64,000 nucleotides of DNA from Syntrophales bacterium (GCA_963662405.2 CAXXKT010000001.1:2400001-2464000), one strand, 5' to 3'. Shown: positions 2,745 to 47,743, counted from the stretch's first letter. The notes: a model not told the origin generated them from the letters alone. Program-made: numbers and translations.

Positions 2745-3509
2745 ATGGATCTTAATTTAACGGGCCGAAAGGCACTGGTGACGGGTGGTTCCAAGGGGAT
2801 CGGACGCGCATGCGCCGAGATCCTGGCATCTGAAGGGTGCAGTCTGCATCTGGTTGCGCGGGAAGAGACGAACCTGCGACAGACACAGGAAGTGATCGAA
2901 TCGCAGTACGGTGTTGAGGTTACCATCCATCCCGTCGATCTGAGCCGGAGCGGTGAGATCACGGCACTTGCGGCAACGTGTTCCGATATCGATATTCTGG
3001 TGAATAACGCCGGGGCAATCCCGCGAGGGGATCTCTGGGAAGTCGACGAGCATCGGTGGCGCGAGGCATGGGATCTCAAGGTGTTCGGTTATATCAACCT
3101 GTGCAGGGCGATCTATCCACAGATGAGATCGCGCGAAAAGGGTGTGATCATCAACGTCATCGGCATGGCGGGCGAGCGGCCCCGTATCGAGTATATAGCA
3201 GGCGGCTCCGGTAACGCCTCCCTCATGGCGTTCACCAGGGCATTGGGGGCCCGAAGTCTGCAAGACGGGATCCGTGTTGTCGGTGTCAACCCCGGACTCA
3301 TCCAGACCGAGCGCCTGCTGAAGATACTCAAGGATGGTGCCCAGAGAAGGTTCAACGATCCGGAACGCTGGAAGGAACTGATGCCCTCGGATCCGACGCC
3401 GGGAGACCCTGGCGATATTGCCGGTCTGGTGGTATTTCTCGCCTCTGATCGGGCAAAATATATCACCGGTACCGTGATAACCGCCGACGGCGGCTCATCG
3501 GCGGGATAA
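2745..3509 (+). CDS. Short-chain dehydrogenase/reductase
   Basis: TGGSKGIG, DILVNNAG, GIRVVGVNPG, YITGTVITADGG. Confidence 0.9.
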   Translation: MDLNLTGRKALVTGGSKGIGRACAEILASEGCSLHLVAREETNLRQTQEVIESQYGVEVTIHPVDLSRSGEITALAATCSDIDILVNNAGAIPRGDLWEVDEHRWREAWDLKVFGYINLCRAIYPQMRSREKGVIINVIGMAGERPRIEYIAGGSGNASLMAFTRALGARSLQDGIRVVGVNPGLIQTERLLKILKDGAQRRFNDPERWKELMPSDPTPGDPGDIAGLVVFLASDRAKYITGTVITADGGSSAG

Positions 3510-3669: not shown

Positions 3670-4287
3670 CTACTGGTTCATCATCTCCACCCCCAGGTCG
3701 AAGGCCGTGAGGTTGGCGGCCATCTTTTCCGCGGGGAGACTGCGTGCGAGGGCCGCCTGGAAATCATCCCTTCCGACGGGAAGATCACCCACGGCCGACA
3801 GGGCGCCGATCATAATAATATTTCCCAGGATGGAATTTCCCAGTTTGACCGCCTCGTCGGTGGCGTCGATAAACCAGGCACGGGCCGCCAGATCGGTCAG
3901 CATTTCCTTTATTTCGTCCAGCGATGGATAGGAAAGAGCTCCCGCAATGACGCCGGAGGGATAGATGGCCCGGGTGTTGGTCAGGACCTTCACCGCGGGG
4001 TTGCCGTAGCGGGCGAGTACCCGGATCGCCTCGATCGGCTCGAGGGTAACCACGACATCGGCTTTCCCCGCCGGGATCTGGGGACTCCAGGTCGATTCGG
4101 ACGAGACCCTGATATGGCTCATCACCGAACCTCCCCGCTGGGAAGCGCCGAAGGTCTCCCCGATGGTAACATAGAATCCCTGCTGGACCAGCATATTCGA
4201 AAACATGCGTGATGCCATGACATTTCCCTGGCCGCCGACGCCGGTGATAATGACGTTGTAAGGATCTTTGGGTAGTATTGCAGTCAT
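3670..4287 (-). CDS. iorB: Indolepyruvate:ferredoxin oxidoreductase beta subunit
   Basis: GVGGQG, GASQRGGSVMSH; directly follows iorA. Confidence 0.9.
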   Translation of the reverse strand: MTAILPKDPYNVIITGVGGQGNVMASRMFSNMLVQQGFYVTIGETFGASQRGGSVMSHIRVSSESTWSPQIPAGKADVVVTLEPIEAIRVLARYGNPAVKVLTNTRAIYPSGVIAGALSYPSLDEIKEMLTDLAARAWFIDATDEAVKLGNSILGNIIMIGALSAVGDLPVGRDDFQAALARSLPAEKMAANLTAFDLGVEMMNQ

Positions 4288-4290
4288 TGC

Positions 4291-6228
4291 TCAGGCCACC
4301 TCCTCCCGTTTGATCGCCCCTTGGGGGCAGATATCGGCGCAGACGCCGCAACCCACGCAGATGACCTCGTCAATCTGTGCCTTCTTTTCATTTTCATTCC
4401 ATATGAGTCCGGGACAGCGGAAGATACGGGTGCAGAGGCGGCCGCAGCCGCATTCCTCACCGAGACAGAGTGCCTGGTCCACCCGGACATCATAATCCTT
4501 TTTGTTTTTTCGCTGAGGGCTGAGGGCGCAGGCCTTGCTCAGTATCAGCACCTTGACACCCTTCGTGTCCTCGATCAGTTCATTCAGGGTCTCCCGAGTC
4601 CCCTCGAGATCGAAGGGATCCCTGATCTCGACCCGGGCCCCGATACCCTCGCATATCCGTGCGATATCGATCGCGGGGACCTCCTCGCCGAGGACGTTGT
4701 GGTCCAGACCCGGGTGGGGCTGGAAACCCGTCATCGCCGTCCCGTTGTTGTCCAGCACCACCAGGGTGATGTTCGATCTGTTATGAACGGCATTGACCAG
4801 GGCCGGTATGACGGCATGGTAAAAGGTCGAATCACCACAGACAGCGATGATGGGCTGGTTGAGGCCGAACTGGCCCAGTTTCCCGAAACCGCTGGCGATA
4901 CCCGTTCCGGATCCCATGGAGTGGAGGGTCTTGAGGGTGTGAAATCCGGTGGAACCGGTGGCCATGGTGTAGCAACCGATATCGCCGCAGACGAAACCCT
5001 TCCTCCCGTCCATCTCGAGGGCGTTGTGGATACTGAAGAAGGATGCCCGATGGGGGCAGCCCGGACAGAAGACCTGTTCCCGGTTCGGTGCACCGGAGGA
5101 GACGGAAAGCTGTGCCTTTTGCTGGTATTCCTCCGGGGCGGGGGTGTAATCGATCCCCAGCACGGAACTCAGACCCGCGATAACCAGATCGGGATTGAGT
5201 TCCCCCACCATTGGGATGGTCCCGTCGTTCTTCCCGTAGAATGTCTTGACGCCGATTGTTCCTGCCTGTTCGGCGGCCAGGATTTTTACCTGTTCTTCCA
5301 GAAAGGGGAGGACCTCCTCCACCACAAGAACCCGATCCGTTGTTGAAAGATGTCGTGCCAGCAGTTTCGGGGGGAGGGGCCACGTCGTTCCCATCTTCAG
5401 GAGGCCAACCCTCTCTTTCACGCCGAGGACATCGATCGCCTCCTTGCTGTACAGATAGCAGGCGCTGCTTGTGATGATGAGGAGCTCCGGGCTCTCCGGC
5501 CCCTCGTAGGTATTGAAGGGACAGTCTTCGAACAGCTCCCGCGCCTTCTCCACCTTCTTTTGTTGTTGCTCGTGCTTCCATTCCACGGGGCTGCTGATGA
5601 CGAGCCCTGTATCCTGGTCGAGGACAAATCCGTCATAGGTAAACGTGGCCGTTCGCTTCCCGTCGGGGAGTTTCCCGTAGGTGATATTCCCGCTGGCGTG
5701 AGACATGCGGGTGACGCTCCTGACGACCACGACCTGTCGGAGCTCCTCCGACAGGTCGAAGGCCCATTTCGTCATCTCCTTCGCCTCCTGGAAGGTCCCC
5801 GGTTCGAGGAGCGGGATCTCCATCAGGCGGGCGAAGTACCGGGACTCTCCCTCATTGACGCTCGAGAGCGCCCCCGGATCGTCACAGGTCACCAGGACGA
5901 ACCCTCCCCTGGTCCCCGAGCCGACGAGGTGGAGGAGAAAATCGGACGCCACGTTCACGCCGTTCTGTTTCATGACGCACAGTGTCCGCAGGGTGGCAAA
6001 TGAGGCCGCGGCCGCCACCTCGAGGGCCACCTTTTCGTTGACGGACCACTCAACGTAAAGGTTGCGCTCCTTGGCTACTTTCGAGAGGCTCTCGATGATC
6101 TCCGATGATGGGGTTCCCGGGTAACCGCTGGCGACATTGACCCCCGCCTCCAGGGCGCCCCGGACGATCGCCTCGTTTCCCATTACCAGGTAAGAAGCTC
6201 CTTCTTTCGTATCGGTCAAATAGGACAT
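4291..6228 (-). CDS. iorA: Indolepyruvate:ferredoxin oxidoreductase alpha subunit
   Basis: MGNEAIVRGA, GYPGTPSSEI, CPGCPHR, GDIGCY, GDSTF, C-terminal ferredoxin. Confidence 0.95.
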   Translation of the reverse strand: MSYLTDTKEGASYLVMGNEAIVRGALEAGVNVASGYPGTPSSEIIESLSKVAKERNLYVEWSVNEKVALEVAAAASFATLRTLCVMKQNGVNVASDFLLHLVGSGTRGGFVLVTCDDPGALSSVNEGESRYFARLMEIPLLEPGTFQEAKEMTKWAFDLSEELRQVVVVRSVTRMSHASGNITYGKLPDGKRTATFTYDGFVLDQDTGLVISSPVEWKHEQQQKKVEKARELFEDCPFNTYEGPESPELLIITSSACYLYSKEAIDVLGVKERVGLLKMGTTWPLPPKLLARHLSTTDRVLVVEEVLPFLEEQVKILAAEQAGTIGVKTFYGKNDGTIPMVGELNPDLVIAGLSSVLGIDYTPAPEEYQQKAQLSVSSGAPNREQVFCPGCPHRASFFSIHNALEMDGRKGFVCGDIGCYTMATGSTGFHTLKTLHSMGSGTGIASGFGKLGQFGLNQPIIAVCGDSTFYHAVIPALVNAVHNRSNITLVVLDNNGTAMTGFQPHPGLDHNVLGEEVPAIDIARICEGIGARVEIRDPFDLEGTRETLNELIEDTKGVKVLILSKACALSPQRKNKKDYDVRVDQALCLGEECGCGRLCTRIFRCPGLIWNENEKKAQIDEVICVGCGVCADICPQGAIKREEVA

Positions 6229-10202: not shown

Positions 10203-10658
10203 ATGTTGAGAAAGGCAAAGGTAAGCGACGTAAAGATCATTCATCAGATGATTAATTTCTCTTCAAACAAAGGGGAAATGCTCCCCCGGTCACTCATGGA
10301 TCTGTACGGCAGCCTGCGCGATTTCTTCGTCTCTCTCGACGATGACGGTTCCCTGATCGGTTTCTGTGCCATGCACATCTTCTGGGAAAACCTCGCGGAG
10401 GTCAGGTCTTTGTATGTACGAGACCAAAGCAGAAGGACGGGTGTCGGTAGAAAACTGGTAGAGGCATGTATCTCCGAGGCGATTACCCTCGATCTTTTGA
10501 GGATATTCACCCTCACCTATCAGACCGAGTTTTTCGAGAGCCTCGGTTTTGTGGTCACCGACCGATCCAAACTTCCCGAAAAGGTGTGGTCCGACTGTTT
10601 CAAGTGCTCGAAATATCCTGACTTCTGTGATGAAATCGCCATGATTGTCGAACTCTGA
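10203..10658 (+). CDS. argA: Short GNAT N-acetylglutamate synthase-like acetyltransferase
   Basis: MLPRS, LAEVRSL, LPEKVWSDC..C..Y...CDEIAM. Confidence 0.75.
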   Translation: MLRKAKVSDVKIIHQMINFSSNKGEMLPRSLMDLYGSLRDFFVSLDDDGSLIGFCAMHIFWENLAEVRSLYVRDQSRRTGVGRKLVEACISEAITLDLLRIFTLTYQTEFFESLGFVVTDRSKLPEKVWSDCFKCSKYPDFCDEIAMIVEL

Positions 10659-38120: not shown

Positions 38121-38196
38121 GGCGGCATAGCCAAGTGGCTAAGGCAGCGGTCTGCAAAACCGTTATTCACCGGTTCGAGTCCGGTTGCCGCCTCCA
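38121..38196 (+). tRNA. tRNA-Cys(GCA); integration site
   Basis: GGCGGCA...TGCCGCCTCCA, anticodon GCA. Confidence 0.97.
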
Positions 38197-38197
38197 A
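38152..38197 (+). repeat. attL (46 bp, 3' half of tRNA-Cys)
   Basis: Identical to 47698-47743. Confidence 0.95.
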
Positions 38198-38211
38198 GAA
38201 ATAACAAGGGG

Positions 38212-39417
38212 TTAGCCTACAACGGCTTGCCCCTTGTTTGTTTCAGGGTGCGTATAGGGTGCGTTTGGTTGCGTGTCCAGTTCGTCAATGTCCGATCTGC
38301 TTTCCTTTGGAAGCCATTTGTAATAAGTCCTATATGTGATTTCCGTTGTCGAATGACCCATTTCCTTGCTTACCTCTGCCAGGGAATCCCCTTTACTCAA
38401 TCGCAAGGTAGCATAGGTGTGCCTCATATCGTGCGGGGTCCGTCTTCTCAGTTTTGACTTATCCATGCCCCGGTTCCATACACGATGAATGAAGTTGCCA
38501 TAATTCAAGGGTGTACCGTCTTCATTGTTGAAAACCCATTCCGGCATAGACTTCCATCCCTGTTTAAGCGTTCTCTCTGCCATGTACTTTTTATGCTGTG
38601 TGAGAAGCTCTGCAAGTTGTGAGGTCATTCTTACGTGACGACGGCTTGACCGGCTCTTAGGGGTCGTTATTTTGCCCCGCGTGATGTTCCTTTGCACAAG
38701 TATCAACTTTTGATAGAAGTCAATATCCCCCCACTGTAGGCCGATAATTTCACCTATTCTGAGACCGGTTCTAAATCCACAAATGACAAGGGGATAATAT
38801 GTCGGATACTCTTTTAAGAATGTCTGTTCAAGTTTTGCGCGCTCTTTCCATGACAAAGGGTCCGGTTCTTTTACTTGCCGTTCATCTTCGGGTTTCGGTA
38901 TGGGAACCCCTCGCGCAGGGTTTGAAGAGATGAAACCATCAGGATTCACGGCATGCCTTAAAATTGCGCTCAGACAGTTTTTTATATTCCTTGCCGTGCT
39001 ACTCCTTAACCCTCCCTTGATCTTTTCGCTTATAAGGTCGCTGATCATTCGTGACGTGATTTCATCAAGGGGTTTCGATCCAAAAGCAGGTAAGAGGGTT
39101 TCATCAATTATGAGTCGATAGCTACGGTACGTAGAATGCTTCAGAGATAGGAGGGCAACTTTTTTATACCAACCGGTTTGAGATTTGCCTTCAGAGTCTT
39201 TCCAGCCGTCAACATATTCCTTGAGGGTAGGGGGCTTAGAGGATTTATCATCAATCCCCATTTCTCCCAGGGTCAATTTTGCTTCGATCTTCCTTGCGGC
39301 CTCCTGGGCAATACGCTTATCATGCCCCACCTTCTTTGATTTGCGTTTCCCGTTGTGATTGATAAACAACCACCATTCCCCGGACCCTTTGACCTTTTCT
39401 TTGACCTTGACTCCCAT
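38212..39417 (-). CDS. Tyrosine integrase
   Basis: TGLRIGEIIGLQWGDID, K, HDMRHTYAT, MGHS..EITYRTY; adjacent to attL. Confidence 0.95.
   Translation of the reverse strand: MGVKVKEKVKGSGEWWLFINHNGKRKSKKVGHDKRIAQEAARKIEAKLTLGEMGIDDKSSKPPTLKEYVDGWKDSEGKSQTGWYKKVALLSLKHSTYRSYRLIIDETLLPAFGSKPLDEITSRMISDLISEKIKGGLRSSTARNIKNCLSAILRHAVNPDGFISSNPARGVPIPKPEDERQVKEPDPLSWKERAKLEQTFLKEYPTYYPLVICGFRTGLRIGEIIGLQWGDIDFYQKLILVQRNITRGKITTPKSRSSRRHVRMTSQLAELLTQHKKYMAERTLKQGWKSMPEWVFNNEDGTPLNYGNFIHRVWNRGMDKSKLRRRTPHDMRHTYATLRLSKGDSLAEVSKEMGHSTTEITYRTYYKWLPKESRSDIDELDTQPNAPYTHPETNKGQAVVG
38245..38263 (+). repeat. Putative integrase arm-type sites (left)
   Basis: AGGGTGCGTATAGGGTGCG, identical to 47604-47622. Confidence 0.75.
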
Positions 39418-39480
39418 AATTCACCCCTTTTCAAGGGGCCAGGACACCCGCCCCGGCCCCTTTCTCGAATCTGTGATTGT

Positions 39481-39873
39481 TTATCCCGCCCCATATAGTC
39501 CGCCCCGAATTAACGTTAAGTGAGGGGCAGAGGTTTTTACCTTTTCAACTACAGGTTTTTGATCTTCTTGCCATTTCTTATACACATCTTGCCATTCTGC
39601 AAGTCGTTGCTTGCCTACTTTAACATTTTCCTTATGCCGGACTAGCCATTTCCTGCTAAACCTCAAACCCATTTCCAGAAAGGCTTTATCCATACCGCTC
39701 TGATTTGGATGTGTTTTCTTTCGCTCAAGCCACTCCTTTATTTCTTGCCGACAATCCCTTACCCCTTTTTGATGTAGGGCAATCCTGTTTTTTTCAATAG
39801 CGATAAAGTCTTTAAGGTATTTTTCACGACCCTCTTCAAACTGCTTCCATTCTTCCGATACATAAAACCGCAT
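39481..39873 (-). CDS. Hypothetical helical protein (130 aa)
   Basis: AAAGGAGAGGAG RBS before ATG 39873; no recognisable family. Confidence 0.65.
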   Translation of the reverse strand: MRFYVSEEWKQFEEGREKYLKDFIAIEKNRIALHQKGVRDCRQEIKEWLERKKTHPNQSGMDKAFLEMGLRFSRKWLVRHKENVKVGKQRLAEWQDVYKKWQEDQKPVVEKVKTSAPHLTLIRGGLYGAG

Positions 39874-39886
39874 TGCTCCTCTCCTT

Positions 39887-40055
39887 TCAAAATAGAAAAC
39901 CCCCCGAAGACTTCTCAAGGCCATAGGGGACCGCCCCCCACGTTACCGGGGAGGGAATCTTCAGGGGGTTTTGGGTGGTCTGTAGCTTTTTCATGGCCCT
40001 ATGGTTTGAGATTGAATGTAATGCTGTATATACAGCTATACCGCATGGAGGTCAA
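39887..40055 (-). promoter_or_regulatory. Sigma70-like promoter and structured leader with 35-aa uORF
   Basis: TTGACC-17-TATATA; uORF 39994-39887; two interleaved complementary stems. Confidence 0.6.
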
Positions 40056-40091
40056 GAATTTTGTGTTGCAATACAGCAAAAAATACCATAA

Positions 40092-40256
40092 ATGATACCC
40101 ATGGATAAAAAACATGTAACATTCAGAATTGACCCGGCAATTGTAAAAAAAATGAAATTCCTTTCCGTAGAAAAGGATAGGTCTCTAACTGACTTATTTC
40201 TTGAAGCCATTGAAGACCTCCTGAAAAAATATGAAAAGCCTAAGCGAATGAAATAA
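40092..40256 (+). CDS. Ribbon-helix-helix DNA-binding protein (below ORF-track size cutoff)
   Basis: MIPMDKKHVTFRIDPAIVKKMKFLSVEKDRSLTDLFLEAIEDLLKKYEKPKRMK, a beta-strand plus two helices pattern. Confidence 0.75.
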   Translation: MIPMDKKHVTFRIDPAIVKKMKFLSVEKDRSLTDLFLEAIEDLLKKYEKPKRMK

Positions 40257-40285
40257 CTTACTGCCTTTTTCGCCAAGGGGGAGTT

Positions 40286-40708
40286 ATGGATTTTAATAAG
40301 CCGGTCAAATATAGTAATTATATTTCTGGATTTTTGGCCATATGCCTATTTATTGTTTTGCCGTTTTTTATCTTAATGGATACTTGTTCTACATCATCTC
40401 CGCCCCCCACACCTGAACAAATTGCTGCTAAGCAATTACGTATGGATGATATGGACGCACGGACATGGGCCAGAATATATGTCAAAAATTCACTTAAATC
40501 GCCTTCAACAGCTAAATTTCCAAACGTGCTCGACTATATAGTCGCAAGAGCAGCAGACGAAAAAGGCAATATCATAAAGGATACATGGATAGTCTCTAGC
40601 TACGTAGATGCTCAGAATAGTTTCGGTGCAATGCTGAGAAGCAGATGGTGTGTTACGCTTAAAAAAGTAGGTGACAAGTGGATTGCACTTGACGTTGATA
40701 TACGATAA
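40286..40708 (+). CDS. Hypothetical single-TM protein (satellite accessory gene)
   Basis: N-terminal TM; LKSPSTAKFP and YVDAQNSFGAMLR motifs. Confidence 0.7.
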   Translation: MDFNKPVKYSNYISGFLAICLFIVLPFFILMDTCSTSSPPPTPEQIAAKQLRMDDMDARTWARIYVKNSLKSPSTAKFPNVLDYIVARAADEKGNIIKDTWIVSSYVDAQNSFGAMLRSRWCVTLKKVGDKWIALDVDIR

Positions 40709-40865
40709 TCATGTCTTAAGGATTAAATTTGTCTCTAAGACGCGCCTTCTTAGCCTCCCCTCTAAAAGTCGATTCTGGGCGGCTTTTCTAATGTCAAAAC
40801 CGCCATTCTGTCGGATTTGTTGCAGTCGTTTTACAAATCGGCAATTTTCGCCGTTTTCAAAGAAC

Positions 40866-40900
40866 AAAATGGGAGGGGAGGGGTGTTTCCACCCCTCCCC
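40866..40900. terminator. Hairpin between convergent transcription units
   Basis: ggggaggggtg-tttc-cacccctcccc. Confidence 0.55.
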
Positions 40901-41062
40901 CTGAAACAGCGAGCAGGGGGAGCGGCCTTGCCCGCTGTTTTTGTGTGCCGATTCACGTTCGGAGGTACGCAATCGGCCGCGAGTTTTGCTGAAACCAGGT
41001 AACTCGAAACCTGGTCGCCGCCTGCGGGATAGCCCGCCCCCGGCGCAGGGTAGTCAATACGC

Positions 41063-41422
41063 TTATTCAATCCGCCCCTGTGCGAAGATGCACAGGGCAG
41101 TATTGCTTGACGAATCGACTGTAAGAGAAGTTGCTGCCGTCAACACCATCCCGCCGTTTCGAAAATCCCATTGCAGTGAGGTATTCGCGGCCATTGCAAC
41201 AGGACCTAGCAAAGCCGTTGTGACTGCTGCGCCTGTCTTCCCTTCGCCGATGGTGATACTCTGAGCACCGGCCCCGTTGTTAATGGTGAGATGGTCAACA
41301 ATGATCGACGTTCCCGCCGCCGGAGCCGCTTTTAATACTTCACACCCGGACGCATCGGCGCTCGTGGCGTTCAAAATCCACCCGAATTTTCCGGGAGCTG
41401 GATTCGTTACAGTAATAGCCAT
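41063..41422 (-). CDS. Putative virion structural / head accessory protein
   Basis: Ala/Thr/Gly-rich beta-type sequence downstream of capsid gene; role inferred from position. Confidence 0.55.
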   Translation of the reverse strand: MAITVTNPAPGKFGWILNATSADASGCEVLKAAPAAGTSIIVDHLTINNGAGAQSITIGEGKTGAAVTTALLGPVAMAANTSLQWDFRNGGMVLTAATSLTVDSSSNTALCIFAQGRIE

Positions 41423-41435
41423 AATTCACCCCTTC

Positions 41436-41942
41436 CTATGCCAGGCACGTAGGCATCCTGTTCGCGGGATATCGCGGTTCCAAGATTGCGAATACAATCG
41501 CCTGTCCGGTCGCTCCACCGGGATCGGTGAAGTCAAGCGTCAACCACTCTTCACCATTCGCAACATCCATCTCAGAGGCCATGATATCGACAACCAGCAT
41601 GTAGTTGTCATAGGTGCCGTGAGTGAGCGTGAGTGCCGCGCTCGTACTCCAGGCAGTGAGAACGTCACAGGAAGCAGTACTTCCCGCAACCGCCGTTCCC
41701 TGTGCCGCACCGCCAAAGGCGTAACGGAAGGTCAAGGCCGAAGTGCAAGCCGCATCACTCGCGCCTGAATACAGATACAACACCGGGCTTGCCGTCCCGA
41801 TATCGTAAAGCTGAATCAGGTAGGTGCACCGATGAAAATTCTTCATACAAATACTGTCCGAAAGGTTGGAAGCTGCATTATCGAAGTCGATATCAACACC
41901 AACCGGGACGGGTTTAAAATTTTCGATGAAAATCATGTTCAT
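41436..41942 (-). CDS. Putative head decoration protein
   Basis: Immediately downstream of capsid gene; Ala/Thr/Asp-rich; role inferred from position. Confidence 0.55.
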   Translation of the reverse strand: MNMIFIENFKPVPVGVDIDFDNAASNLSDSICMKNFHRCTYLIQLYDIGTASPVLYLYSGASDAACTSALTFRYAFGGAAQGTAVAGSTASCDVLTAWSTSAALTLTHGTYDNYMLVVDIMASEMDVANGEEWLTLDFTDPGGATGQAIVFAILEPRYPANRMPTCLA

Positions 41943-41992
41943 TTACCTCGTATATGTAGTGCCGGGACCCGAAGGCCCCGGCGTGTTTATTG

Positions 41993-43306
41993 TTATCGAG
42001 CACCAAGAACCACGAAGGGGCTTACCGTCGTGCTTCCGTCTTCAAGGGTCAGAGCCTCATCCCAGAGGGGCTGGCCGTCGTGCCGTTCTATGATTCTTGA
42101 CAACAACTCATCCGTGGTAAAGTGAACATGGATTGACGTGTCAAACCTCATGCCCTCCCGGAGTCCCACAACGTACTGTGAGAAGTCACAGAGCATGATA
42201 TCGCCCTTATTCCCAAGAACTTCCGTCTTTTCCGTGAACAAAACCGGCCTCGTGAGGATCTTGAATTGACCGTTACTTTCAGTCATAACGGGTATTCTGT
42301 CGCCTCCGGTGCCAACGGCAATGCTTAAGGTCAATAGTTGCGGTATCGTGGATTGGTGACACACCCATACAGAGTTTTGGAAGCTCCCCGCGAACATCCT
42401 CGCCATCATGTTTGTCAAATTTTCGTACACGATGGTATCAGCCGCCTGGCCGTTTTCAGGGTCAACCTCTATGGTGCAACCAGCATTCAGGATACCCAAC
42501 GGTCCACCTGCCGCGCCGATCCCTTTCAAAAAGGCTTTATCCCGGTACCAGGCAAGGCCTTTTCCACACAGGGTTTCAATCTGTGACATCCCGCCGGGAG
42601 TATCCGCATTCAGCTCAGAGCTGAACCGAATCAAACCCGTCAATTTTTTCGCGTTCAGGGTCATGCTGCGAGCTTTCGGGGAGTTTTCGCTTATCGTGCC
42701 AAGCTCTGCTGTATAGGACGCGGTAAACCCGCCGAAAAGAGCTGTTGAATGATCCCCAATTGACATAGCTGGAATCTTGATTTCATTGCCCTTCATAGGC
42801 TGAACGAAACATCTCGGCATTACCAATTCATTTTCCAGTGATACCGCGTGAATCCTAGCGGCCTGCTCGGAGGGTACCAGAAAGCCCCCATCACTCGGAA
42901 CCGTTTCACTCATGGAATTGAGTAGAAGGCCCGGATGGTGACGGCCGGAAAGCGCCGCTGCGAAGAAGTTCGTTGTCTCATCTTCCCACTTGTACCCGCC
43001 GCTTCCAAACAGGCTTTTATAATCTTTTGCCCCGTTCGGGGGTATCAGAGTGCGGGCACCGTCAAGCCGGTATTCGCTGCCATTGCCTCTATCGGTAAAA
43101 TTCATGTTCTGAGGAAGGCTAAGCGGCTTTTCGGGAAGATATTTCCGCTCGTCTTCAATAGCGGATTCCATTTCGCCTATAAGTGAAATTTCCTGAGCAT
43201 TCAAAGCCCGCCCTTCTTTAACCGCCTTTACCTGAATATGTCCGATTTTCTCAGACAGTTTTTTTATATTTTCCCGTGTCTCTTCTTCGATATGCATATT
43301 ATTCAC
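41993..43306 (-). CDS. HK97-family major capsid protein
   Basis: N-terminal delta-like helical region; SDGGFLVP, AKKL.GL...S.EL, FLKG.G...PLGILN, DFSQY, R.DGQP. Confidence 0.9.
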   Translation of the reverse strand: MNNMHIEEETRENIKKLSEKIGHIQVKAVKEGRALNAQEISLIGEMESAIEDERKYLPEKPLSLPQNMNFTDRGNGSEYRLDGARTLIPPNGAKDYKSLFGSGGYKWEDETTNFFAAALSGRHHPGLLLNSMSETVPSDGGFLVPSEQAARIHAVSLENELVMPRCFVQPMKGNEIKIPAMSIGDHSTALFGGFTASYTAELGTISENSPKARSMTLNAKKLTGLIRFSSELNADTPGGMSQIETLCGKGLAWYRDKAFLKGIGAAGGPLGILNAGCTIEVDPENGQAADTIVYENLTNMMARMFAGSFQNSVWVCHQSTIPQLLTLSIAVGTGGDRIPVMTESNGQFKILTRPVLFTEKTEVLGNKGDIMLCDFSQYVVGLREGMRFDTSIHVHFTTDELLSRIIERHDGQPLWDEALTLEDGSTTVSPFVVLGAR

Positions 43307-43517
43307 CTTTCAATTTTGTTTTATTTTTATGTATATAAAAAAGCCGATACAGCGTGAAACATCTCGCATCAAACTGGATCGTTCCGCCCGGTTTCCGCCT
43401 TTCCTTTTGACAACCTCCCGCTGTCCTGGGTTCGTCAGCATCCCGCTGATTTATCCCTAAGGTTCGGCATCCCTCAGACTTCCATTTCACAGCATCTCAC
43501 TGTTAAAGGCATGGCCC

Positions 43518-43868
43518 TTAGACAATTCTTTCATAACCGCCGCCGCTGATTCGCAGTTGCAGGTTCGTCTGAAGATTTAAAAGCTTCCATATTTTCAAAA
43601 ATTCCCCCGTTGCCTGTCGCTGCGTATTGAGTAACGGGTGTTGCCGGGCTATCTTTGACCGCTCTGACTTTTTGCTTAATCCCTCTTCCCGGATAATTCG
43701 CCCGCACTCATCCGCCTGGTCCATCGCTTCAAGACCCCGAAGGAATAGCGCAATTTGACCCGGAGCACGGACGGACCGGCCCACATAAAAACTGAATAAT
43801 TCCTTTGCCTTTTCGCTTAAATGTTCCGGTGGTTCCGGCCATTTATGTTCATTTTCTGAGCTTGTCAT
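43518..43868 (-). CDS. P27-family terminase small subunit
   Basis: PEPPEHLSEKAKE, IREEGL, QHPLL. Confidence 0.75.
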   Translation of the reverse strand: MTSSENEHKWPEPPEHLSEKAKELFSFYVGRSVRAPGQIALFLRGLEAMDQADECGRIIREEGLSKKSERSKIARQHPLLNTQRQATGEFLKIWKLLNLQTNLQLRISGGGYERIV

Positions 43869-43902
43869 ATTGTTTCCCCTGTCACTTTTTGGTTTTTTTA
43901 TT

Positions 43903-43989
43903 CCCCCAAAAGTTTAATTATGCGATTTTGGGCATTTCGAAGCCAGCGCGGTTAACTCGGCATTGCTTCCAGAGATTTGAATGCCCCCC
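43903..43989 (-). other. Putative cos-like packaging site
   Basis: Minus strand GGGGGGCATTCAAATCTCT...ACCGCGC...CAAAATCGCATAATT...GGGGG just upstream of terS. Confidence 0.5.
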
Positions 43990-44007
43990 TTGTTCTCCAT
44001 TCAGAGG

Positions 44008-44811
44008 TCATTTATCCCACCACTTGCCCTTTTCATCTTCCGGCCTGTCTGTTACTTCCCGGAGATACCGGCCCACCTTTTCAAGCTTGACTACCTTTTC
44101 CAGGCAACCCGTTCTCCGGTGAAACTCTACCCGGACCTTTGCCCGGTTCTCTCCATCCTTCGGGGTCCGCTGTATCATCAAAACGCTGTCGCTTTCCTGA
44201 GAGACAAACGAGCTATCCCGGATTGATTCATAAGACAGGTTGCCCTCTGATTTGCCCTTCACGGTATGGCACAAGAGAAAGATAATCAGGCCATTATCCA
44301 CCGCCAGGCTCTTCAGTCGTCTAATGACCGCGCCGATATCAAGGCTTGGGTTCCGGCTCCTGGCAATGTCAAACAAGTAATGAAGGTGATCGATGAAGAC
44401 CACGCGGGTATGGTACTTGATAAACGATTCAAGGATTCTGTCTTCTAACCACTTCATGTCGTGTGCTTTTAGTTTTGACGGCATATAGACAAACGGGACT
44501 TTCTGAAACTGTGACAGGAATTGACGCGCCGGGACTTCATAGGAAAACCACAGCGGGAAGATTTGCTGTTTTATCATTTCCACCGTGAAGCTCTGACAAA
44601 GGAGCGTCTTTCCCCCTTTGGTGTAACCTGATACCGCGTACACCTCCCCGGCCTGAAAACCCTCAATGTAGCGGTCAAGGGTAGGGATACCGCTCTTGAC
44701 GGTAACCACCGGCTCCGCCGTGCTCTCCAAGGCAAGGGAAAGCTCCGGCGCACTTATGACCCGATCCTCACCTTGATAGTTTTTTAAGCTCTCTTGCCGT
44801 TTCGCGGTCAT
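44008..44811 (-). CDS. DnaB-like helicase, C-terminal ATPase domain only
   Basis: SGIPTLD.YIEGF..GE, SGYTKGGKT (Walker A), VFIDHLHYL, IRDSSFVSQESD. Confidence 0.85.
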   Translation of the reverse strand: MTAKRQESLKNYQGEDRVISAPELSLALESTAEPVVTVKSGIPTLDRYIEGFQAGEVYAVSGYTKGGKTLLCQSFTVEMIKQQIFPLWFSYEVPARQFLSQFQKVPFVYMPSKLKAHDMKWLEDRILESFIKYHTRVVFIDHLHYLFDIARSRNPSLDIGAVIRRLKSLAVDNGLIIFLLCHTVKGKSEGNLSYESIRDSSFVSQESDSVLMIQRTPKDGENRAKVRVEFHRRTGCLEKVVKLEKVGRYLREVTDRPEDEKGKWWDK

Positions 44812-45118
44812 TCAAGATTTCCTTTCTCAATGTTTCAATCGTGTTCATGTCCTCTGCTATCAGGCCCCGGATTAACTCTTGCATGTCCGGCTCTGCGCCC
44901 TCCGCCAGGGCAACCTCAATGCCTATTAGTTCCGTCAAGACCTGCATGTGCTCCCGGCTTTCCCGTTCATATTCCCGGTAAAGTTCCCCCACGTAATCAC
45001 TCTTAGGGATGTTTCCTTCCCGCTCCTGTCTCTCTTTCTCCGCAACCTCCGCCCGTTCTTTCTCTGACAGGAAAGGGGCAACTTCCTTGAATGCCTCTTG
45101 ACGGTTATTCCCAACCAT
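44768..45118 (-). CDS. Hypothetical acidic helical protein
   Basis: Overlaps both the initiator and helicase genes. Confidence 0.6.
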   Translation of the reverse strand: MVGNNRQEAFKEVAPFLSEKERAEVAEKERQEREGNIPKSDYVGELYREYERESREHMQVLTELIGIEVALAEGAEPDMQELIRGLIAEDMNTIETLRKEILNDRETARELKKLSR

Positions 45119-45752
45119 CAGCGGCCCCCTTCGGTTCGTCTATTTCGTCTTCCCACCGGCCTTGATTCAACCAGGTGGAAGCGTGGGGGATATACTTCTT
45201 GTCCTGCCATTGCTCAGAGTGTTTATGCAGTTCAAGGATTGAGAGAAGTTCATCAAGGGGGGGAAGGTCCCCGTTTCTTTTCTTCCAGGCCTTCCATGCT
45301 GCATCTTTTCCCACCTTCCGAGGATACGCTTGCCAGAAGGTGAGGAAATTTGACGTATATATATTTTCTTTCTTTACATTCTTGTATGTTGCCACTTGTT
45401 TGTCGTTTTGCGTGTCGTTTTCGTTTTCTTCGTTCTGGTAAGTGTTCCAATTCACTATGGTAATTATCGAAAATTTGTTTGTCGTTTTGCGTGTCACATT
45501 TCCGGCCTTTTCCAGAAATTCAAGGATAGTGCGGATTTCCCGGATTGTAAGGCCCGTTTCCTCGGAAGCTACCCGTAACCCAAAGATGAATTGTCCCGGC
45601 ATCAGGTGCACAACCTGCAACCCCACAATCGCGTCGTATTCCTTGTGGGATGCTTTCATCAGGCAGTAGGTCCAGAAAGCCCATAGCTTGTGATTCCTAA
45701 CCCAACCGGCATCAAGGGACCTGCGCCACAATTTGACATAGCCTTGATTCAT
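45105..45752 (-). CDS. Phage-type replication initiator (replisome organiser-like)
   Basis: GYVKLWR, winged-helix N-terminus, ITIVNWNTYQ; FWQAYPRKVGK..A...W, PHASTWLNQGRWEDE. Confidence 0.85.
   Translation of the reverse strand: MNQGYVKLWRRSLDAGWVRNHKLWAFWTYCLMKASHKEYDAIVGLQVVHLMPGQFIFGLRVASEETGLTIREIRTILEFLEKAGNVTRKTTNKFSIITIVNWNTYQNEENENDTQNDKQVATYKNVKKENIYTSNFLTFWQAYPRKVGKDAAWKAWKKRNGDLPPLDELLSILELHKHSEQWQDKKYIPHASTWLNQGRWEDEIDEPKGAADGWE
45396..45495. repeat. 21-bp direct repeat (putative iterons) inside the initiator gene
   Basis: TTGTTTGTCGTTTTGCGTGTC at 45396-45416 and 45475-45495. Confidence 0.75.
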
Positions 45753-45955
45753 TTTCCGGCTCCTAGCTGGTATGCGTGCGGATCGTCGAACCTTGTATTG
45801 AAGAGGACTGTTAACTCTTCCTCAGTCGTCTTAACCCGTCCCTTATCATTTGCCAGTTCCGCGATTAACAGAAACATGTTCGCGCCCAGGGGGTTTTGGT
45901 GATATAGGCGGTCGTACCGTTTCTTGAATTTCCTATTAGGTTTGAAAGTTATCAC
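45749..45955 (-). CDS. Hypothetical protein
   Basis: 4-bp overlaps with both neighbours. Confidence 0.65.
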   Translation of the reverse strand: MITFKPNRKFKKRYDRLYHQNPLGANMFLLIAELANDKGRVKTTEEELTVLFNTRFDDPHAYQLGAGK

Positions 45956-46170
45956 TGCAAGTCCCTCAATGTTTCATTGACAATACTATCCACTTGGTCA
46001 TCTTCCACGGCGAACGATTCAAGGTAGGCATCAATCCAATCGTACTTAATCAAGATTGTGCCGCTCGGTATGCGGGAATGCCTCAACCCATCCTTTAGCC
46101 AATCCCGCATGGTTCTTTCGCTTATTCCGGCGTATTGTGCAGCGAGTTTTATTTTTGCCCAACCATTCAT
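45952..46170 (-). CDS. Excisionase/AlpA-like HTH protein
   Basis: AAQYAGISERTMRDW. Confidence 0.75.
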   Translation of the reverse strand: MNGWAKIKLAAQYAGISERTMRDWLKDGLRHSRIPSGTILIKYDWIDAYLESFAVEDDQVDSIVNETLRDLQ

Positions 46171-46188
46171 GATTTGCCCCGTATTACC

Positions 46189-46392
46189 CTAACCCCGAAA
46201 AACCTCACTCGGATTTACATCAAGGTAGCTTGCAACTTTCTTTTCGATGTCAGGTGTTCCGATCCCATACTTGATAAGTGTAGATATCCGGCTTTCAGGA
46301 ATATCTGTTTCAAAAGCGAGCTGCCTTTGGGATATTTGCTTTTTGAAGAGCAGCATTTTCAAGGTTTCGTTTGGCCTGTATCTCGTACCCAT
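46189..46392 (-). CDS. XRE/Cro-like HTH regulator
   Basis: ISQRQLAFETDIPESRIS...KKVASYLDV.PSEVF; CAGGAGG RBS. Confidence 0.8.
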   Translation of the reverse strand: MGTRYRPNETLKMLLFKKQISQRQLAFETDIPESRISTLIKYGIGTPDIEKKVASYLDVNPSEVFRG

Positions 46393-46477
46393 GAGTAACC
46401 TCCTGAAAAAGTATTTCTTAAAAATGGAAGCAAAATTTTTTTGCCTTTCTACTAAGGGTAAAAATGTAACAGGATTT

Positions 46478-46709
46478 TCATAGTTTTTTCTTTATTCGCG
46501 CCACCACATTTCTAACATTAACCTCAGTCAAATCAAGCATTTGGGCTATTGCGCGATATGTTTTACCAGCAACCAAAAGTGTAACAATCTGCTGTTCCCT
46601 TGGTGTTAATTGTATGCGCCGTTTGGGTGATGGAAACTTGCCGTGACGTGGAACACCGATAGTTATTTCTCTTTGCGGTGTTTCCTGCTTTTTTGTTCAA
46701 GGCTTTCAT
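46478..46709 (-). pseudogene. LuxR-type HTH protein (array unit 0), one extra base in T6 run 46689-46694
   Basis: MKALNKK joins QETPQREITIG...LTPREQQIVTLLVAGKTYRAIAQMLDLTEVNVRNVVARIKKKL only if one base is removed. Confidence 0.65.
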
Positions 46710-46770
46710 AAGCTCACTTCGGTAATCCTTGCCTTTCTACTAATAGTAAAAAAGGGGGTCAAAAACGTAA

Positions 46771-46908
46771 CTATTTGAGGTATTTTACCTTCATGCGCTT
46801 GAGATGATTTCTGAGATTTGCCCTAGTAATATTCAGTAGTTCTGCAATTTCGACCCTCGAAAAACCTTTTTCTGAAAGCGTAGCAATTTTCATCTCCATT
46901 TCAGTCAA
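46771..46908 (-). CDS. Mini LuxR/sigma-region-4-like HTH protein (unit 1)
   Basis: LTEMEMKIATLSEKGFSRVEIAELLNITRANLRNHLKRMKVKYLK; AAAGGCAAGG before TTG. Confidence 0.65.
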   Translation of the reverse strand: MTEMEMKIATLSEKGFSRVEIAELLNITRANLRNHLKRMKVKYLK

Positions 46909-46953
46909 ATGAACCTTGCCTTTCTACTAATAGTAAAAAAGGGGCTAAAACCG

Positions 46954-47085
46954 TCAAGATTTTAGGTATTTTTTCTTTGCATTTGCGTAGTGAACACCAA
47001 GGGTGTGCCTTGTTATTCTTAGCATTTTGCACACCTCGCCCCTCGACAGACCCCTTTCTAAAAGCGTCAAGATTTTCATCTCCAT
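46954..47085 (-). CDS. Mini LuxR/sigma-region-4-like HTH protein (unit 2)
   Basis: MEMKILTLLERGLSRGEVCKMLRITRHTLGVHYANAKKKYLKS. Confidence 0.6.
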   Translation of the reverse strand: MEMKILTLLERGLSRGEVCKMLRITRHTLGVHYANAKKKYLKS

Positions 47086-47142
47086 TTCCGTTAAATGAAC
47101 CTCGCCTTTCTACTAATAGTAAAAAAGGGGCTAAAAGCGTCG

Positions 47143-47280
47143 CTATTTAAGGTGTTTTTTCTTCATCCTGTGCAAATGGTCACGCAAACTTTTTTTTGAA
47201 ATATCCAATAGTTCTGCAATTTCAGCCCTTGAAAAACCTTTTTCTGAAAGCGTCGCTATTTTCATCTCCATTTCAGTCAA
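47143..47280 (-). CDS. Mini LuxR/sigma-region-4-like HTH protein (unit 3)
   Basis: LTEMEMKIATLSEKGFSRAEIAELLDISKKSLRDHLHRMKKKHLK; TTG start overlaps the upstream TGA (TTGA). Confidence 0.65.
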   Translation of the reverse strand: MTEMEMKIATLSEKGFSRAEIAELLDISKKSLRDHLHRMKKKHLK

Positions 47281-47534
47281 ATGAACCCCGCCAGGAACAC
47301 TCGGCCTCTTGCCAAAAACTCCTTGACAGTCTCAAATTCCATTGATTCCCTCCTACTTATAGGAAAAAATTGTAAAATCTTGCGTTTTGCTGAACGAATC
47401 TGATAGCTTACCTGCTCGCTCGATAATTTAAGATAAACCCCGTATTGGTTGGCTGAAGATAATCTTGATGCAATCTGCTTGTAGGTAAGACCCTCGAAGT
47501 AGAAAAGGTGGAGACACTTGTTTTGAAGGGGAGT
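47277..47534 (-). pseudogene. Sigma-70 region-4-like HTH remnant (unit 4), no start codon before the HTH
   Basis: TPLQNKCLHLFYFEGLTYKQIASRL...QVSYQIRSAKRKI; internal AGGAGG plus ATG gives a 21-aa ORF coupled to unit 3. Confidence 0.5.
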
Positions 47535-47603
47535 TCACTTAGAAATTGACTCTTATCGACTTATAGACTATGTTTTTCACAGCACCATGCAAGGTGCGGC
47601 AGT

Positions 47604-47622
47604 AGGGTGCGTATAGGGTGCG
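47604..47622 (+). repeat. Putative integrase arm-type sites (right)
   Basis: Same 19-mer as 38245-38263. Confidence 0.75.
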
Positions 47623-47697
47623 GATTACGGCAAAATATACGCAATTTGTGATAGCCAAGGGCTAGTAATATCGGTAACTTAGGGTGGCTCCTGTGTC

Positions 47698-47743
47698 CTG
47701 CAAAACCGTTATTCACCGGTTCGAGTCCGGTTGCCGCCTCCAA
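47698..47743 (+). repeat. attR (46 bp)
   Basis: Exact copy of the tRNA-Cys 3' half. Confidence 0.95.

Follow-up and report, generated by a model that had tools for sequence, protein, structure and literature searches.

An array of five short helix-turn-helix (HTH) copies, U0 to U4, heads a 9,546-bp island (38198-47743) at a tRNA-Cys gene (38121-38196) in the genome of a Syntrophales bacterium (GCA_963662405.2; the stretch analysed, CAXXKT010000001.1:2400001-2464000, is 64,000 nucleotides long and is referred to as the window). The island has perfect 46-nt direct repeats, and its predicted genes are those of a phage satellite. Judging from profiles and alignments, the copies are N-terminally truncated derivatives, not full members, of a family of phage proteins in which a four-cysteine (Cys4) module and a linker precede a C-terminal HTH of the LuxR or sigma-70 region 4 (sigma4) type. 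This Cys4-LuxR/sigma4 HTH family appears to be previously uncharacterised and may be a late or packaging regulator. The small open reading frames (mini-ORFs) of the array evidently evolved under purifying selection, and we tentatively propose that the array encodes HTH-only decoys or mimics of helper-phage regulators with several specificities, a possibility that falls a little short of being probable. What is new is the form, namely domain-only, separately encoded copies with divergent recognition helices, derived from an uncharacterised Cys4-HTH family; the principle is already known.

Tandem Repeats Finder placed a 186-bp repeat at 46727-47292 (3.0 copies, 72% matches, score 571), and repeat finding within the window gave three 172-nt copies at spacings of 186 and 186 nt. 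The mini-ORFs of U1, U2, and U3 lie in one common frame (186 nt being 62 codons) and are separated by 50-nt linkers, each with two to four in-frame stops. In U1 and U3, a Shine-Dalgarno-like sequence, GAAAGGC(A/G)AGG, stands 5 nt ahead of the TTG start. The TTG of U1 overlaps the stop of an upstream 21-codon ORF (TTTGA), and this overlap of TGA and TTG makes translational coupling of U1 to that ORF possible. U4 is a longer copy, in which the HTH frame has no in-frame start; an ATG-initiated ORF (46563-46709) is offset from that frame by one base across a run of six adenines (A6, 46689-46694). Programmed frameshifting in U4 was considered and rejected: slippage by -1 on the A run ends at a stop, the two frames are joined by a +1 shift alone, and A6 is short for slippage. 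U4 is accordingly treated as a presumptive pseudogene. The mini-proteins are basic (isoelectric point 9.8-11.3). An earlier note on this DNA, made from the sequence alone, had described three tandem repeats of about 186 bp flanked by two broken units, U0 and U4, of the same general type; the repeats and the broken state of the flanking units stand, but not the common type, because U4 is longer with a full HTH and U0 is of a sigma-70 r4_2-like subtype.

Short reads are difficult to assemble across 186-bp repeats with near-identical linkers, and an assembly that collapsed or expanded variants of one gene could produce such an array. The Logan contigs of runs X1-X3 do break at each repeated linker, and only there; they reproduce all units, and the A6 run, without any difference or gap. 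These runs represent one sample, probably the source sample, and are not independent confirmation. Each distinct core nevertheless has its own contig, at a depth as low as that of the flanks, overlaps fix the order, and cores that differ by 22-39% cannot be strain variants of one collapsed locus. An artefact, which the earlier note had named as a way in which its reading could fail, is thus exceedingly improbable. Two other kinds of element were rejected. An integron does not fit a locus whose ORFs are mutually homologous and whose sole integrase, a phage-type tyrosine enzyme, stands at the far end, and a diversity-generating retroelement does not fit the absence of a reverse transcriptase among the ORFs or unit differences that are not confined to adenines.

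The encoded domains resemble LuxR-type HTHs in both sequence and predicted structure. Scores to the Pfam GerE model (PF00196; cut-off 23.5 bits) were 26.7 bits for U1, 23.9 for U2, 21.8 for U3 (just below the cut-off), and 35.3 for U4, and Sigma70_r4_2, HTH_8, and HTH_23 also match the mini-ORFs; U0 scored 23.3 bits to Sigma70_r4 and 22.8 to Sigma70_r4_2. The AlphaFold model of U1 (predicted local distance difference test (pLDDT) score 91.9) has three helices, at residues 3-13, 18-24, and 29-44, where the protein ends. Its best matches in the PDB are LuxR/GerE DNA-binding domains (VpsT, NarL, GerE, and SdiA), with template modelling (TM) scores of 0.80-0.88 on the query and root-mean-square deviations of 0.7-1.0 Å; the weak Foldseek E-values (0.08-0.5) reflect the shortness of the query. 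The LuxR/GerE domain has four helices, the last of which supports dimerisation, as seen in NarL and GerE structures. The window units span GerE profile positions 3/4-44 of 57, and this usual fourth helix is missing. The quoted peptides of the earlier note, which had reported an intact minus-strand HTH of 43 to 45 amino acids (aa) in each core repeat, were matched, with two of the three passing the GerE cut-off and the model adopting the LuxR/GerE fold.

The same note had also stated that the N-terminal part of the unit is nearly invariant while the recognition helix varies, and that all three frames stay open despite many substitutions. Both statements agree with the alignments. U1 and U3 are 92% identical at the nucleotide level over codons 1-25 and 56% over codons 26-40; for U2 compared with U1 or U3, the corresponding values are 68-71% and 40-42%. 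Although substitutions amount to 22-39%, the 3 x 135 nt of ORF contain no indels. The ratio of non-synonymous to synonymous substitution rates (dN/dS), a comparison that the note had suggested, is 0.16-0.25 for the whole ORFs (Nei-Gojobori counts, U1-U3), and Fisher tests of synonymous versus non-synonymous changes gave p = 1.5e-4, 1.2e-3, and 9.5e-4. Within the N-terminal part of the U1/U3 pair there are five synonymous changes and one non-synonymous change (binomial p = 0.0027). When substitutions were simulated at random to the divergence observed, 25% and 13% of the copies were stop-free, and the observed amino-acid identity was reached in 0 of 20,000. Together, these four lines of evidence point to protein-level constraint on the units, including recent constraint. 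Positive selection on codons 26-40 was not computable because synonymous sites there are saturated (proportion of synonymous differences 0.81-0.88).

To place the units within a larger group of proteins, a profile of U1-U3 was compared with 1.84 billion representative proteins, giving 290 matches at E <= 1e-3. Among the best 150 of these 290, 73 are at most 160 aa long, and 36 of the 73 have an N-terminal CxxC...C...C motif (regular-expression search). The family so delineated, which includes P0008, P0004, and P0070, consists of proteins of about 100 aa with a Cys4 module (CxxC-x(3-14)-C-x(3-10)-C), a linker 'EAExYxxQDYVxQRExTIGxP', and a C-terminal HTH, LTxxExxI.TLLxxGLxR..., ending in ...KKK(Y/H). 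The window units carry the HTH signature LTxxExxI.TLLxxGxxRxxxxxxLxIxxxxLxxH...KKK at their extreme C-terminus and are 46-56% identical to P0008 across the HTH (alignment A4). With the family profile A5, four window units were the top matches among 339 genomes of the order (E 4.7e-15 to 2e-13). U4 matches P0008 by BLASTP with E 6e-23 (51% of 65 positions), including the linker motif (QETPQREITIGVP). The QD(Y)VxQRExTIGxP linker is present in U4 and absent from U1-U3 and U0, which start two codons ahead of the HTH; all five window copies are without the Cys4 module. U0 matches the C-terminus of a 137-aa Cys4 protein on the genome contig G332:C81 (BLASTP E 2e-11, 44% of 55 positions), which has the same Cys4-QDHVSQRE N-terminal part but a HTH of the sigma4_2 type. 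The family therefore has two HTH subtypes, and both are represented in the array.

The N-terminal part of the family has no sequence match in Pfam, NCBIfam, or the PDB, and its model is only moderately confident (pLDDT 64-85); a search of BFVD and PDB sequences with a family member matched the HTH half only. Names on the source proteins are generic (for example, 'NarL/FixJ' and 'CsgD'), and the alignment A6 search returned only generic HTH proteins. The nearest Atlas cluster, which shares 182 features at a score of 0.91, is viral throughout (100%). P0008 and the G332 protein had no tblastn match in INPHARED (50,697 GenBank phage records), and P0004 and the G332 protein, used as single queries, had none in IMG/VR. 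The 90%-identity cluster of P0007, a 48-aa stand-alone HTH, also lists the dissimilar 557-aa P0154 and may be an artefact of gene calling or clustering.

Full-length family genes, carried by uncultivated phages, were located in 10 loci, nine from IMG/VR (alignment A7 search) and one on G332:C81, and their surroundings were annotated with PHROGs. The A7 search gave 10 IMG/VR loci, of which L103 was left out of the separate analysis, its match statistics being those of L102; 127 of 148 ORFs near the matches were scanned, and 21 distant ones (in L102, L104, L106, and L107) were dropped. Each of these loci has a single family copy. In nine of the 10, it lies beside terminase, portal, head-joining, or capsid genes on the same strand, the exception being L107, which is without annotated neighbours. 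The family gene is directly upstream of the portal gene in L099 (at 55 nt) and L105. In L104, the large terminase gene (TerL) is followed by the family gene and then by a head-tail joining gene and the portal gene, and the order in G332:C81 is HNH-terS-TerL-...-member-portal-protease. In L106, an unassigned ORF and then TerL come immediately after it, and in L100, L101, L102, and L108 it is 0.5-3.3 kb upstream of the small terminase gene (terS) or TerL. GC-rich conserved elements are found downstream of the family gene ('GGATAAC...GGGGACC.GTTACCCC' in L100-L102, and a second, 'GGCCGCAGT.GA.TC.GCGGGGAA', in L099 and G332). These could be structured RNAs or cos/pac-related sites; Rfam gave no match in the array or in seven phage loci.

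These positions bear on a further explanation, namely that the family is not a transcription factor but a DNA-binding accessory of cos/pac recognition or head assembly, and that the HTH copies bind helper packaging sites and so block or redirect helper packaging. Two of the 10 loci (L104 and G332:C81) have the gene between TerL and portal, in L106 and L108 it is next to terS/TerL or HNH-terS-TerL, and redirection of packaging is common among satellites, according to the relevant parts of PMC10085698 and 10.1101/2024.04.22.590561. This explanation is improbable, since the family has no similarity to terminases or known packaging factors in Pfam, NCBIfam, PHROGs, or PDB sequences, HTHs of the LuxR/sigma4 class are typical of transcription factors, and the satellite has its own terS-like gene.

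The linkers of U1-U3 are identical at 42-45 of 50 nt (84-90%), and nucleotide identity among the ORFs is 61-78%. A unit plus linker aligns colinearly with L099, from the 3' end of the family gene into the sequence downstream of it, which identifies the linker as a family gene's native 3' flank. By this alignment, the 186-bp unit evidently comprises the HTH-coding part, from two codons before the conserved 'LT', and the native 3' flank. It is conceivable that the linker rather than the protein has been selected, as a captured promoter or operator whose four tandem copies lead into the satellite operon and are fired by the Cys4-HTH regulator of a helper or by the satellite Cro, with the ORFs as passengers. 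The linker is the most conserved part of the repeat and derives from a flank close to a phage portal gene, a fourth copy stands directly upstream of cro, and the linker core TTAGTAGAAAGG has four exact occurrences in the 3.8-Mb genome, all within the array. An 11-bp palindrome (TACTAtTAGTA) is present in the linker, and the Ltr activators of other phages bind a DNA repeat region upstream of terS, as described in part of PMC3753634. Passenger ORFs, on the other hand, would not show five synonymous changes to one non-synonymous change, nor would they stay open. Only one of the four linker copies passes a sigma-70 scan, and the total of four promoter matches compares with 3.0 expected from shuffles; neither promoters nor terminators exceed shuffled sequence. 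A motif shared downstream of the family genes in the phage loci, defined post hoc, is at background apart from L107 and L099. Selection on the linker with mere passenger ORFs is thus unlikely, but a cis-acting linker can coexist with the decoy or mimic reading.

The terminator scan found no minus-strand terminator-like site inside the array. The interval from the last linker copy to cro, at the junction of array and operon, contains an AT-rich hairpin, GCAAAAaaaTTTTGC followed by TTCCATTTTT (46409-46446, minus strand). It resembles a weak terminator or regulatory element and falls below the GC criterion of the scan.

Identities along the repeat form a mosaic. In the recognition segment, U1 and U2 are 40% identical and either is 58-60% identical to L099, whereas the flanks are 87-89% identical among U1-U3. 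The recognition segments are thus about as unlike one another (40-56% at the nucleotide level) as they are unlike a foreign phage gene. The pattern points to homogenisation of the flanks by gene conversion, with the cores kept apart, or to exchange of cores with diverse phage alleles; both fit. In a tree of 85 HTH domains (45 columns), U1 and U3 are sisters (support 100/99), and U2 and U4 fall elsewhere on a backbone without resolution, so the tree appears neither to show nor to exclude separate origins of U1/U3, U2, and U4. A stronger version of our proposal is a 'specificity library', in which gene conversion would keep the scaffold uniform while recognition cores are swapped in from the regulator genes of successive helpers. 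The satellite could then recognise, blunt, or exploit late or packaging sites of several unrelated helpers, and the linker would double as a helper-regulator switch of the satellite operon. We regard this version as doubtful; if true, it would offer satellites a novel route to a broader range of helpers. The idea that the array is a record of past helpers, raised in the earlier note, is speculation.

Several searches were made for a second array. Within the window's own genome, only the array itself and four weak matches in long ORFs were found. Among 100 relatives, 25 had matches, and all those listed fell within open frames 95-963 aa long (best E 1.8e-7). The DNA of positions 45100-47700 matched 20 of 300 genomes of the order, in the xis/orf68/DnaD part only and never in the array, with the exception of a 60-nt att-side match in G252. 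Pattern searches gave 111 matches in IMG/VR and 125 in GTDB species contigs, with 0 confirmed in either, and at least 590 in JGI metagenomes, with three confirmed among the matches listed; two of these three, L040 and L038, were examined and rejected as ordinary extracytoplasmic function (ECF) sigma factors. No unit was present in ten IMG/VR loci that have a related DnaD-like gene (best hmmsearch E 0.048), in G252:C59, or in a second satellite-like element of the window's genome. Profile searches of the order and of 400 genomes of the phylum gave no tandem copies, and in the latter only G404 has a comparable HTH-only frame. This frame (L095 15115-15285, minus strand; = G404:C86) has 57 codons of the family HTH, no ATG, GTG, or TTG start, and a position at the contig end; it adjoins an apparent tRNA (identified by eye) and possibly marks the boundary of a further integrated element. 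The search of relatives, viromes, and phages that the earlier note had suggested yielded no second array and nothing close to the units.

This solitary distribution fits an account in which the copies are recombination scars, that is, functionless and decaying partial duplications or fragments left near the att site by exchange with phages. All copies are without the N-terminal module, two of the five are broken, U2 is without the start codon of U1 and U3, no relative of the array was found in the 100 relatives, the 300 order and 400 phylum genomes, GTDB, IMG/VR, or JGI, and the unit ORFs are absent from a large protein collection. Mere scars would not be expected to show purifying selection that extends to the young U1/U3 pair, or to lack ORF indels after 22-39% substitutions; U1 and U3 moreover have Shine-Dalgarno-like sites, and the start of U1 may be coupled to an upstream ORF with its own AGGAGG. 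We therefore consider scars an unlikely explanation. If the array were only decaying scars, the family and the satellite would still be new annotations, and the biology would be ordinary.

The decoy or mimic reading would work as follows. The mini-proteins are predicted to keep sequence-specific DNA binding without the Cys4 module, which probably serves activation, oligomerisation, or contact with RNA polymerase. By settling on the DNA sites of this family's regulators in helper phages, they would compete with those regulators or partly mimic them, and with several specificities among the units the satellite could influence late or packaging gene expression in more than one type of helper. The units would be co-transcribed with, and ahead of, the cro-xis-rep-terS-capsid operon; the cro, xis-like, DnaD-like, DnaB-like, terS-like, and capsid genes are all on the minus strand with the array, in agreement with the co-orientation claimed in the earlier note. 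That note had proposed that the units let the satellite sense, mimic, or compete with activators of several helpers. Homology to a phage family beside packaging and head genes provides a concrete basis for mimicry or competition, which the note lacked; diversification by positive selection and units that match different helpers are hypotheses, and its interpretation is partly supported overall. The question of how one satellite deals with several different helpers becomes testable here with 45-residue proteins and one 50-nt DNA element.

A number of observations weigh against this proposal. Part of the dN/dS signal could stem from the time that the sequences spent inside full-length phage genes. 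U2 has TTA in place of the TTG start of U1 and U3, and its translation is doubtful because its ATG is at least 14 nt from the Shine-Dalgarno-like GAAAGGCGAGG. With U0 and U4 broken, decay is ongoing in the region. The best-conserved part of the repeat is non-coding and suits a cis-acting role at least equally. The position between TerL and portal, seen in two of the 10 phage loci, is unusual for a late activator. In a word-indexed search of a 5.8-billion-protein collection, the unit ORFs were absent, even as their own proteins. No Cys4 module is encoded in the window's genome (N-module profile, best E 0.15), and no full-length relative or cognate or helper phage was found in it. Because there is neither a second array elsewhere nor a helper or full-length relative in the genome, the arrangement is not shown to be selected.

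Satellites that turn small helper regulators to their own use are known, and none of those compared has this form. P4 delta is a chain of two Ogr-like halves. According to PMC8628076, delta is a homologue of P2 ogr and both promote the late genes of P2 and P4; part of PMC8096241 describes delta as a 'mimic' that competes with Ogr. Like the array, delta is a satellite's own duplicated version of a small helper regulator used on late genes. It is, however, a zinc-finger protein (PF04606) that keeps its whole fold, whereas the array encodes only HTHs in separate mini-ORFs with differing recognition helices, and PF04606 had no Pfam match among the units or family members scanned. CapR of the Vibrio cholerae satellite PLE, a DNA-binding domain taken over from helper phages and domesticated, binds and represses the promoter of the helper capsid operon and tunes late expression of the helper, as told in a section of PMC8096241. 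It likewise derives from one helper DNA-binding domain, but it is a single-copy T5orf172/Bro-N-type homing-endonuclease domain with a zinc finger and a demonstrated function, compared with five LuxR/sigma4 HTH copies known from sequence.

The Ltr late transcriptional regulators (RinA, ArpU, and LtrA-C), which belong to Gram-positive phages, are the other close comparison. A portion of PMC3753634 describes them as small basic proteins in which the C-terminal part sets DNA specificity, with the LtrA family resembling sigma-70 region 4 and the Ltr gene adjoining the packaging module; PtiA of SaPIs acts on LtrC, as mentioned in PMC8096241. The window units are similarly basic and sigma4-like, with phage relatives beside terS, TerL, or portal genes. 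Unlike these activators, for which no Cys4 module has been described, the family has two of 10 loci inside the late cluster and hosts that are not Gram-positive. Models of RinA, ArpU, and DUF1492 (Pfam, NCBIfam) did not match the units or six family members, which matched only the generic Sigma70_r4, r4_2, and GerE models. Single polypeptides of other families contain 4-12 tandem LuxR/sigma4-like HTH repeats (P0001, P0003, P0006, P0018, P0002, and P0010). P0001 is 740 aa long with 12 matched stretches, P0018 has seven, P0006 five, and P0002, P0003, P0005, and P0010 four; a C-terminal tail, 'IVNLM.TK.AS.EQV..', is common to P0001, P0003, and P0006. These fused proteins share conserved scaffold helices and variable recognition helices with the array, but the window units are each closed by stops. 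Neither the sequence searches nor those of the literature gave a satellite or phage-inducible chromosomal island (PICI) with such an HTH array, in accordance with the earlier note, which knew of none.

In gene content, the island is evidently a PICI-like phage satellite in the broad sense: it is small and has an integrase, att repeats, a regulator, replication genes, and terS-like and capsid genes (Table 1). A terminal integrase, att repeats at a tRNA gene, AlpA/xis- and Cro-like regulators, and a length of about 9.5 kb are also shared with PICIs and capsid-forming PICIs (cfPICIs), and it differs from them in lacking a recognised TerL, portal, protease, and head-tail adaptor and in having the integrase at the end far from the regulators. 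For cfPICIs, the part of PMC10085698 on SatelliteFinder gives 9-11 of 11 core components and a median of 14 kb; the integrase, regulator-like, replication, terS-like, and capsid components are recognised here, which places the island outside that definition, with its minimum of nine of 11 (terL and a head-tail adaptor or connector among them) and its exclusion of tail and holin genes. TerL, portal, protease, HNH, head-tail adaptor, tail, and lysis genes were not recognised by Pfam and PHROGs among the 16 island ORFs outside the array; seven of the 16 had no match in either library and may include distant versions of the missing core components. A 68-aa ORF (orf68) lies on the minus strand between the excisionase/AlpA-like and DnaD-like genes, and further unassigned ORFs lie between the capsid and integrase genes. 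The 19-nt exact repeats just inside the island ends consist of two AGGGTGCG octamers each and may be arm-type sites of the integrase.

Table 1 Positions of the array, the satellite genes, and elements near related phage genes (window coordinates unless a locus is named)
Feature	Position	Strand	Remarks
attL, 3' part of tRNA-Cys	38152-38197	+	46-nt perfect repeat of attR
Tyrosine integrase, 401 aa	38212-39417	-	Phage_integrase 72.8 bits; phrog_1 E 6.9e-71
19-nt exact repeat AGGGTGCGTATAGGGTGCG	38245-38263 and 47604-47622		just inside each island end
HK97-type major capsid protein, 437 aa	41993-43306	-	Phage_capsid 111.5 bits; phrog_10
Small-terminase-like, 116 aa	43518-43868	-	weak: Terminase_4 20.4 bits (cut-off 24.7); phrog_83 E 1.1e-5
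DnaB-like helicase ATPase, 267 aa	44008-44811	-	DnaB_C 50.5 bits; phrog_19
DnaD-like replication initiator/loader, 215 aa	45105-45752	-	phrog_2514 E 1.3e-28; phrog_270
Excisionase/AlpA-like HTH, 72 aa	45952-46170	-	weak: HTH_17 21.7 bits (cut-off 27); phrog_66 E 9.1e-6
Cro/C1-type HTH, 67 aa	46189-46392	-	HTH_26 22.7 bits (cut-off 22); phrog_1468
Fourth linker-element copy, 37 nt	46439-46475	-	diverged (65%), between U4 and cro
U4, longer copy	46478-46709	-	HTH frame 46481-46693; linker motif QREITIGVP (QREITIGVPRHGKFP) and full LuxR HTH
Linker after U3	46724-46770	-	native 3' flank of family gene; TACTAtTAGTA palindrome and GAAAGGCAAGG
U3 mini-ORF	46771-46908	-	45 aa, TTG start
Linker after U2	46910-46953	-	sole linker passing the sigma-70 consensus scan (TTGACG-16-TACTAT)
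U2 mini-ORF	46954-47094	-	46 codons from first codon (TTA, non-start); 43 aa from ATG at 47085
Linker after U1	47096-47142	-	from repeat and alignment analysis
U1 mini-ORF	47143-47280	-	45 aa, TTG start
21-codon ORF, MEFETV...	47277-47342	-	AGGAGG 7 nt upstream; in-frame tail of U0
U0 fragment	47343-47534	-	sigma-70 r4_2-type HTH subtype, 10-residue insertion, no start; TGA at 47535-47537 in start position
attR	47698-47743	+	46-nt perfect copy of tRNA-Cys 3' end
GC-rich element, L100	~3080-3130
GC-rich element, L101	~3800-3850
GC-rich element, L102	~10370-10410
GC-rich element, L099	~4560-4620
GC-rich element, L105	~3290-3330
GC-rich element, L096	just downstream of 2811	-

GC content is 0.40-0.54 within the island and 0.53-0.59 outside. 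The lowest values (0.40-0.41) are at 39500-41000, which holds the only plus-strand gene of the island (40286-40708, 140 aa, phrog_13160) and small ORFs; the genes of this segment may be accessory cargo. Rfam matches below threshold at 40833-40959 (Moco 24.9 vs 36; BjrC80 32 vs 80) are probably due to chance. The second PICI-like element of the genome, on another replicon (L053 5345-10368; = G000:C2:23344-28367), is without an HTH array. Its genes, labelled from ORF translations with no family scan, encode an integrase (408 aa), a 277-aa ORF, an AlpA-like protein (92 aa), a 90-aa ORF, a DnaD-like protein (255 aa), and a primase/helicase-like protein (574 aa). The part of this element that comprises the 90-aa ORF and the DnaD-like gene is 82% identical at the DNA level to positions 45389-45945 of the window.

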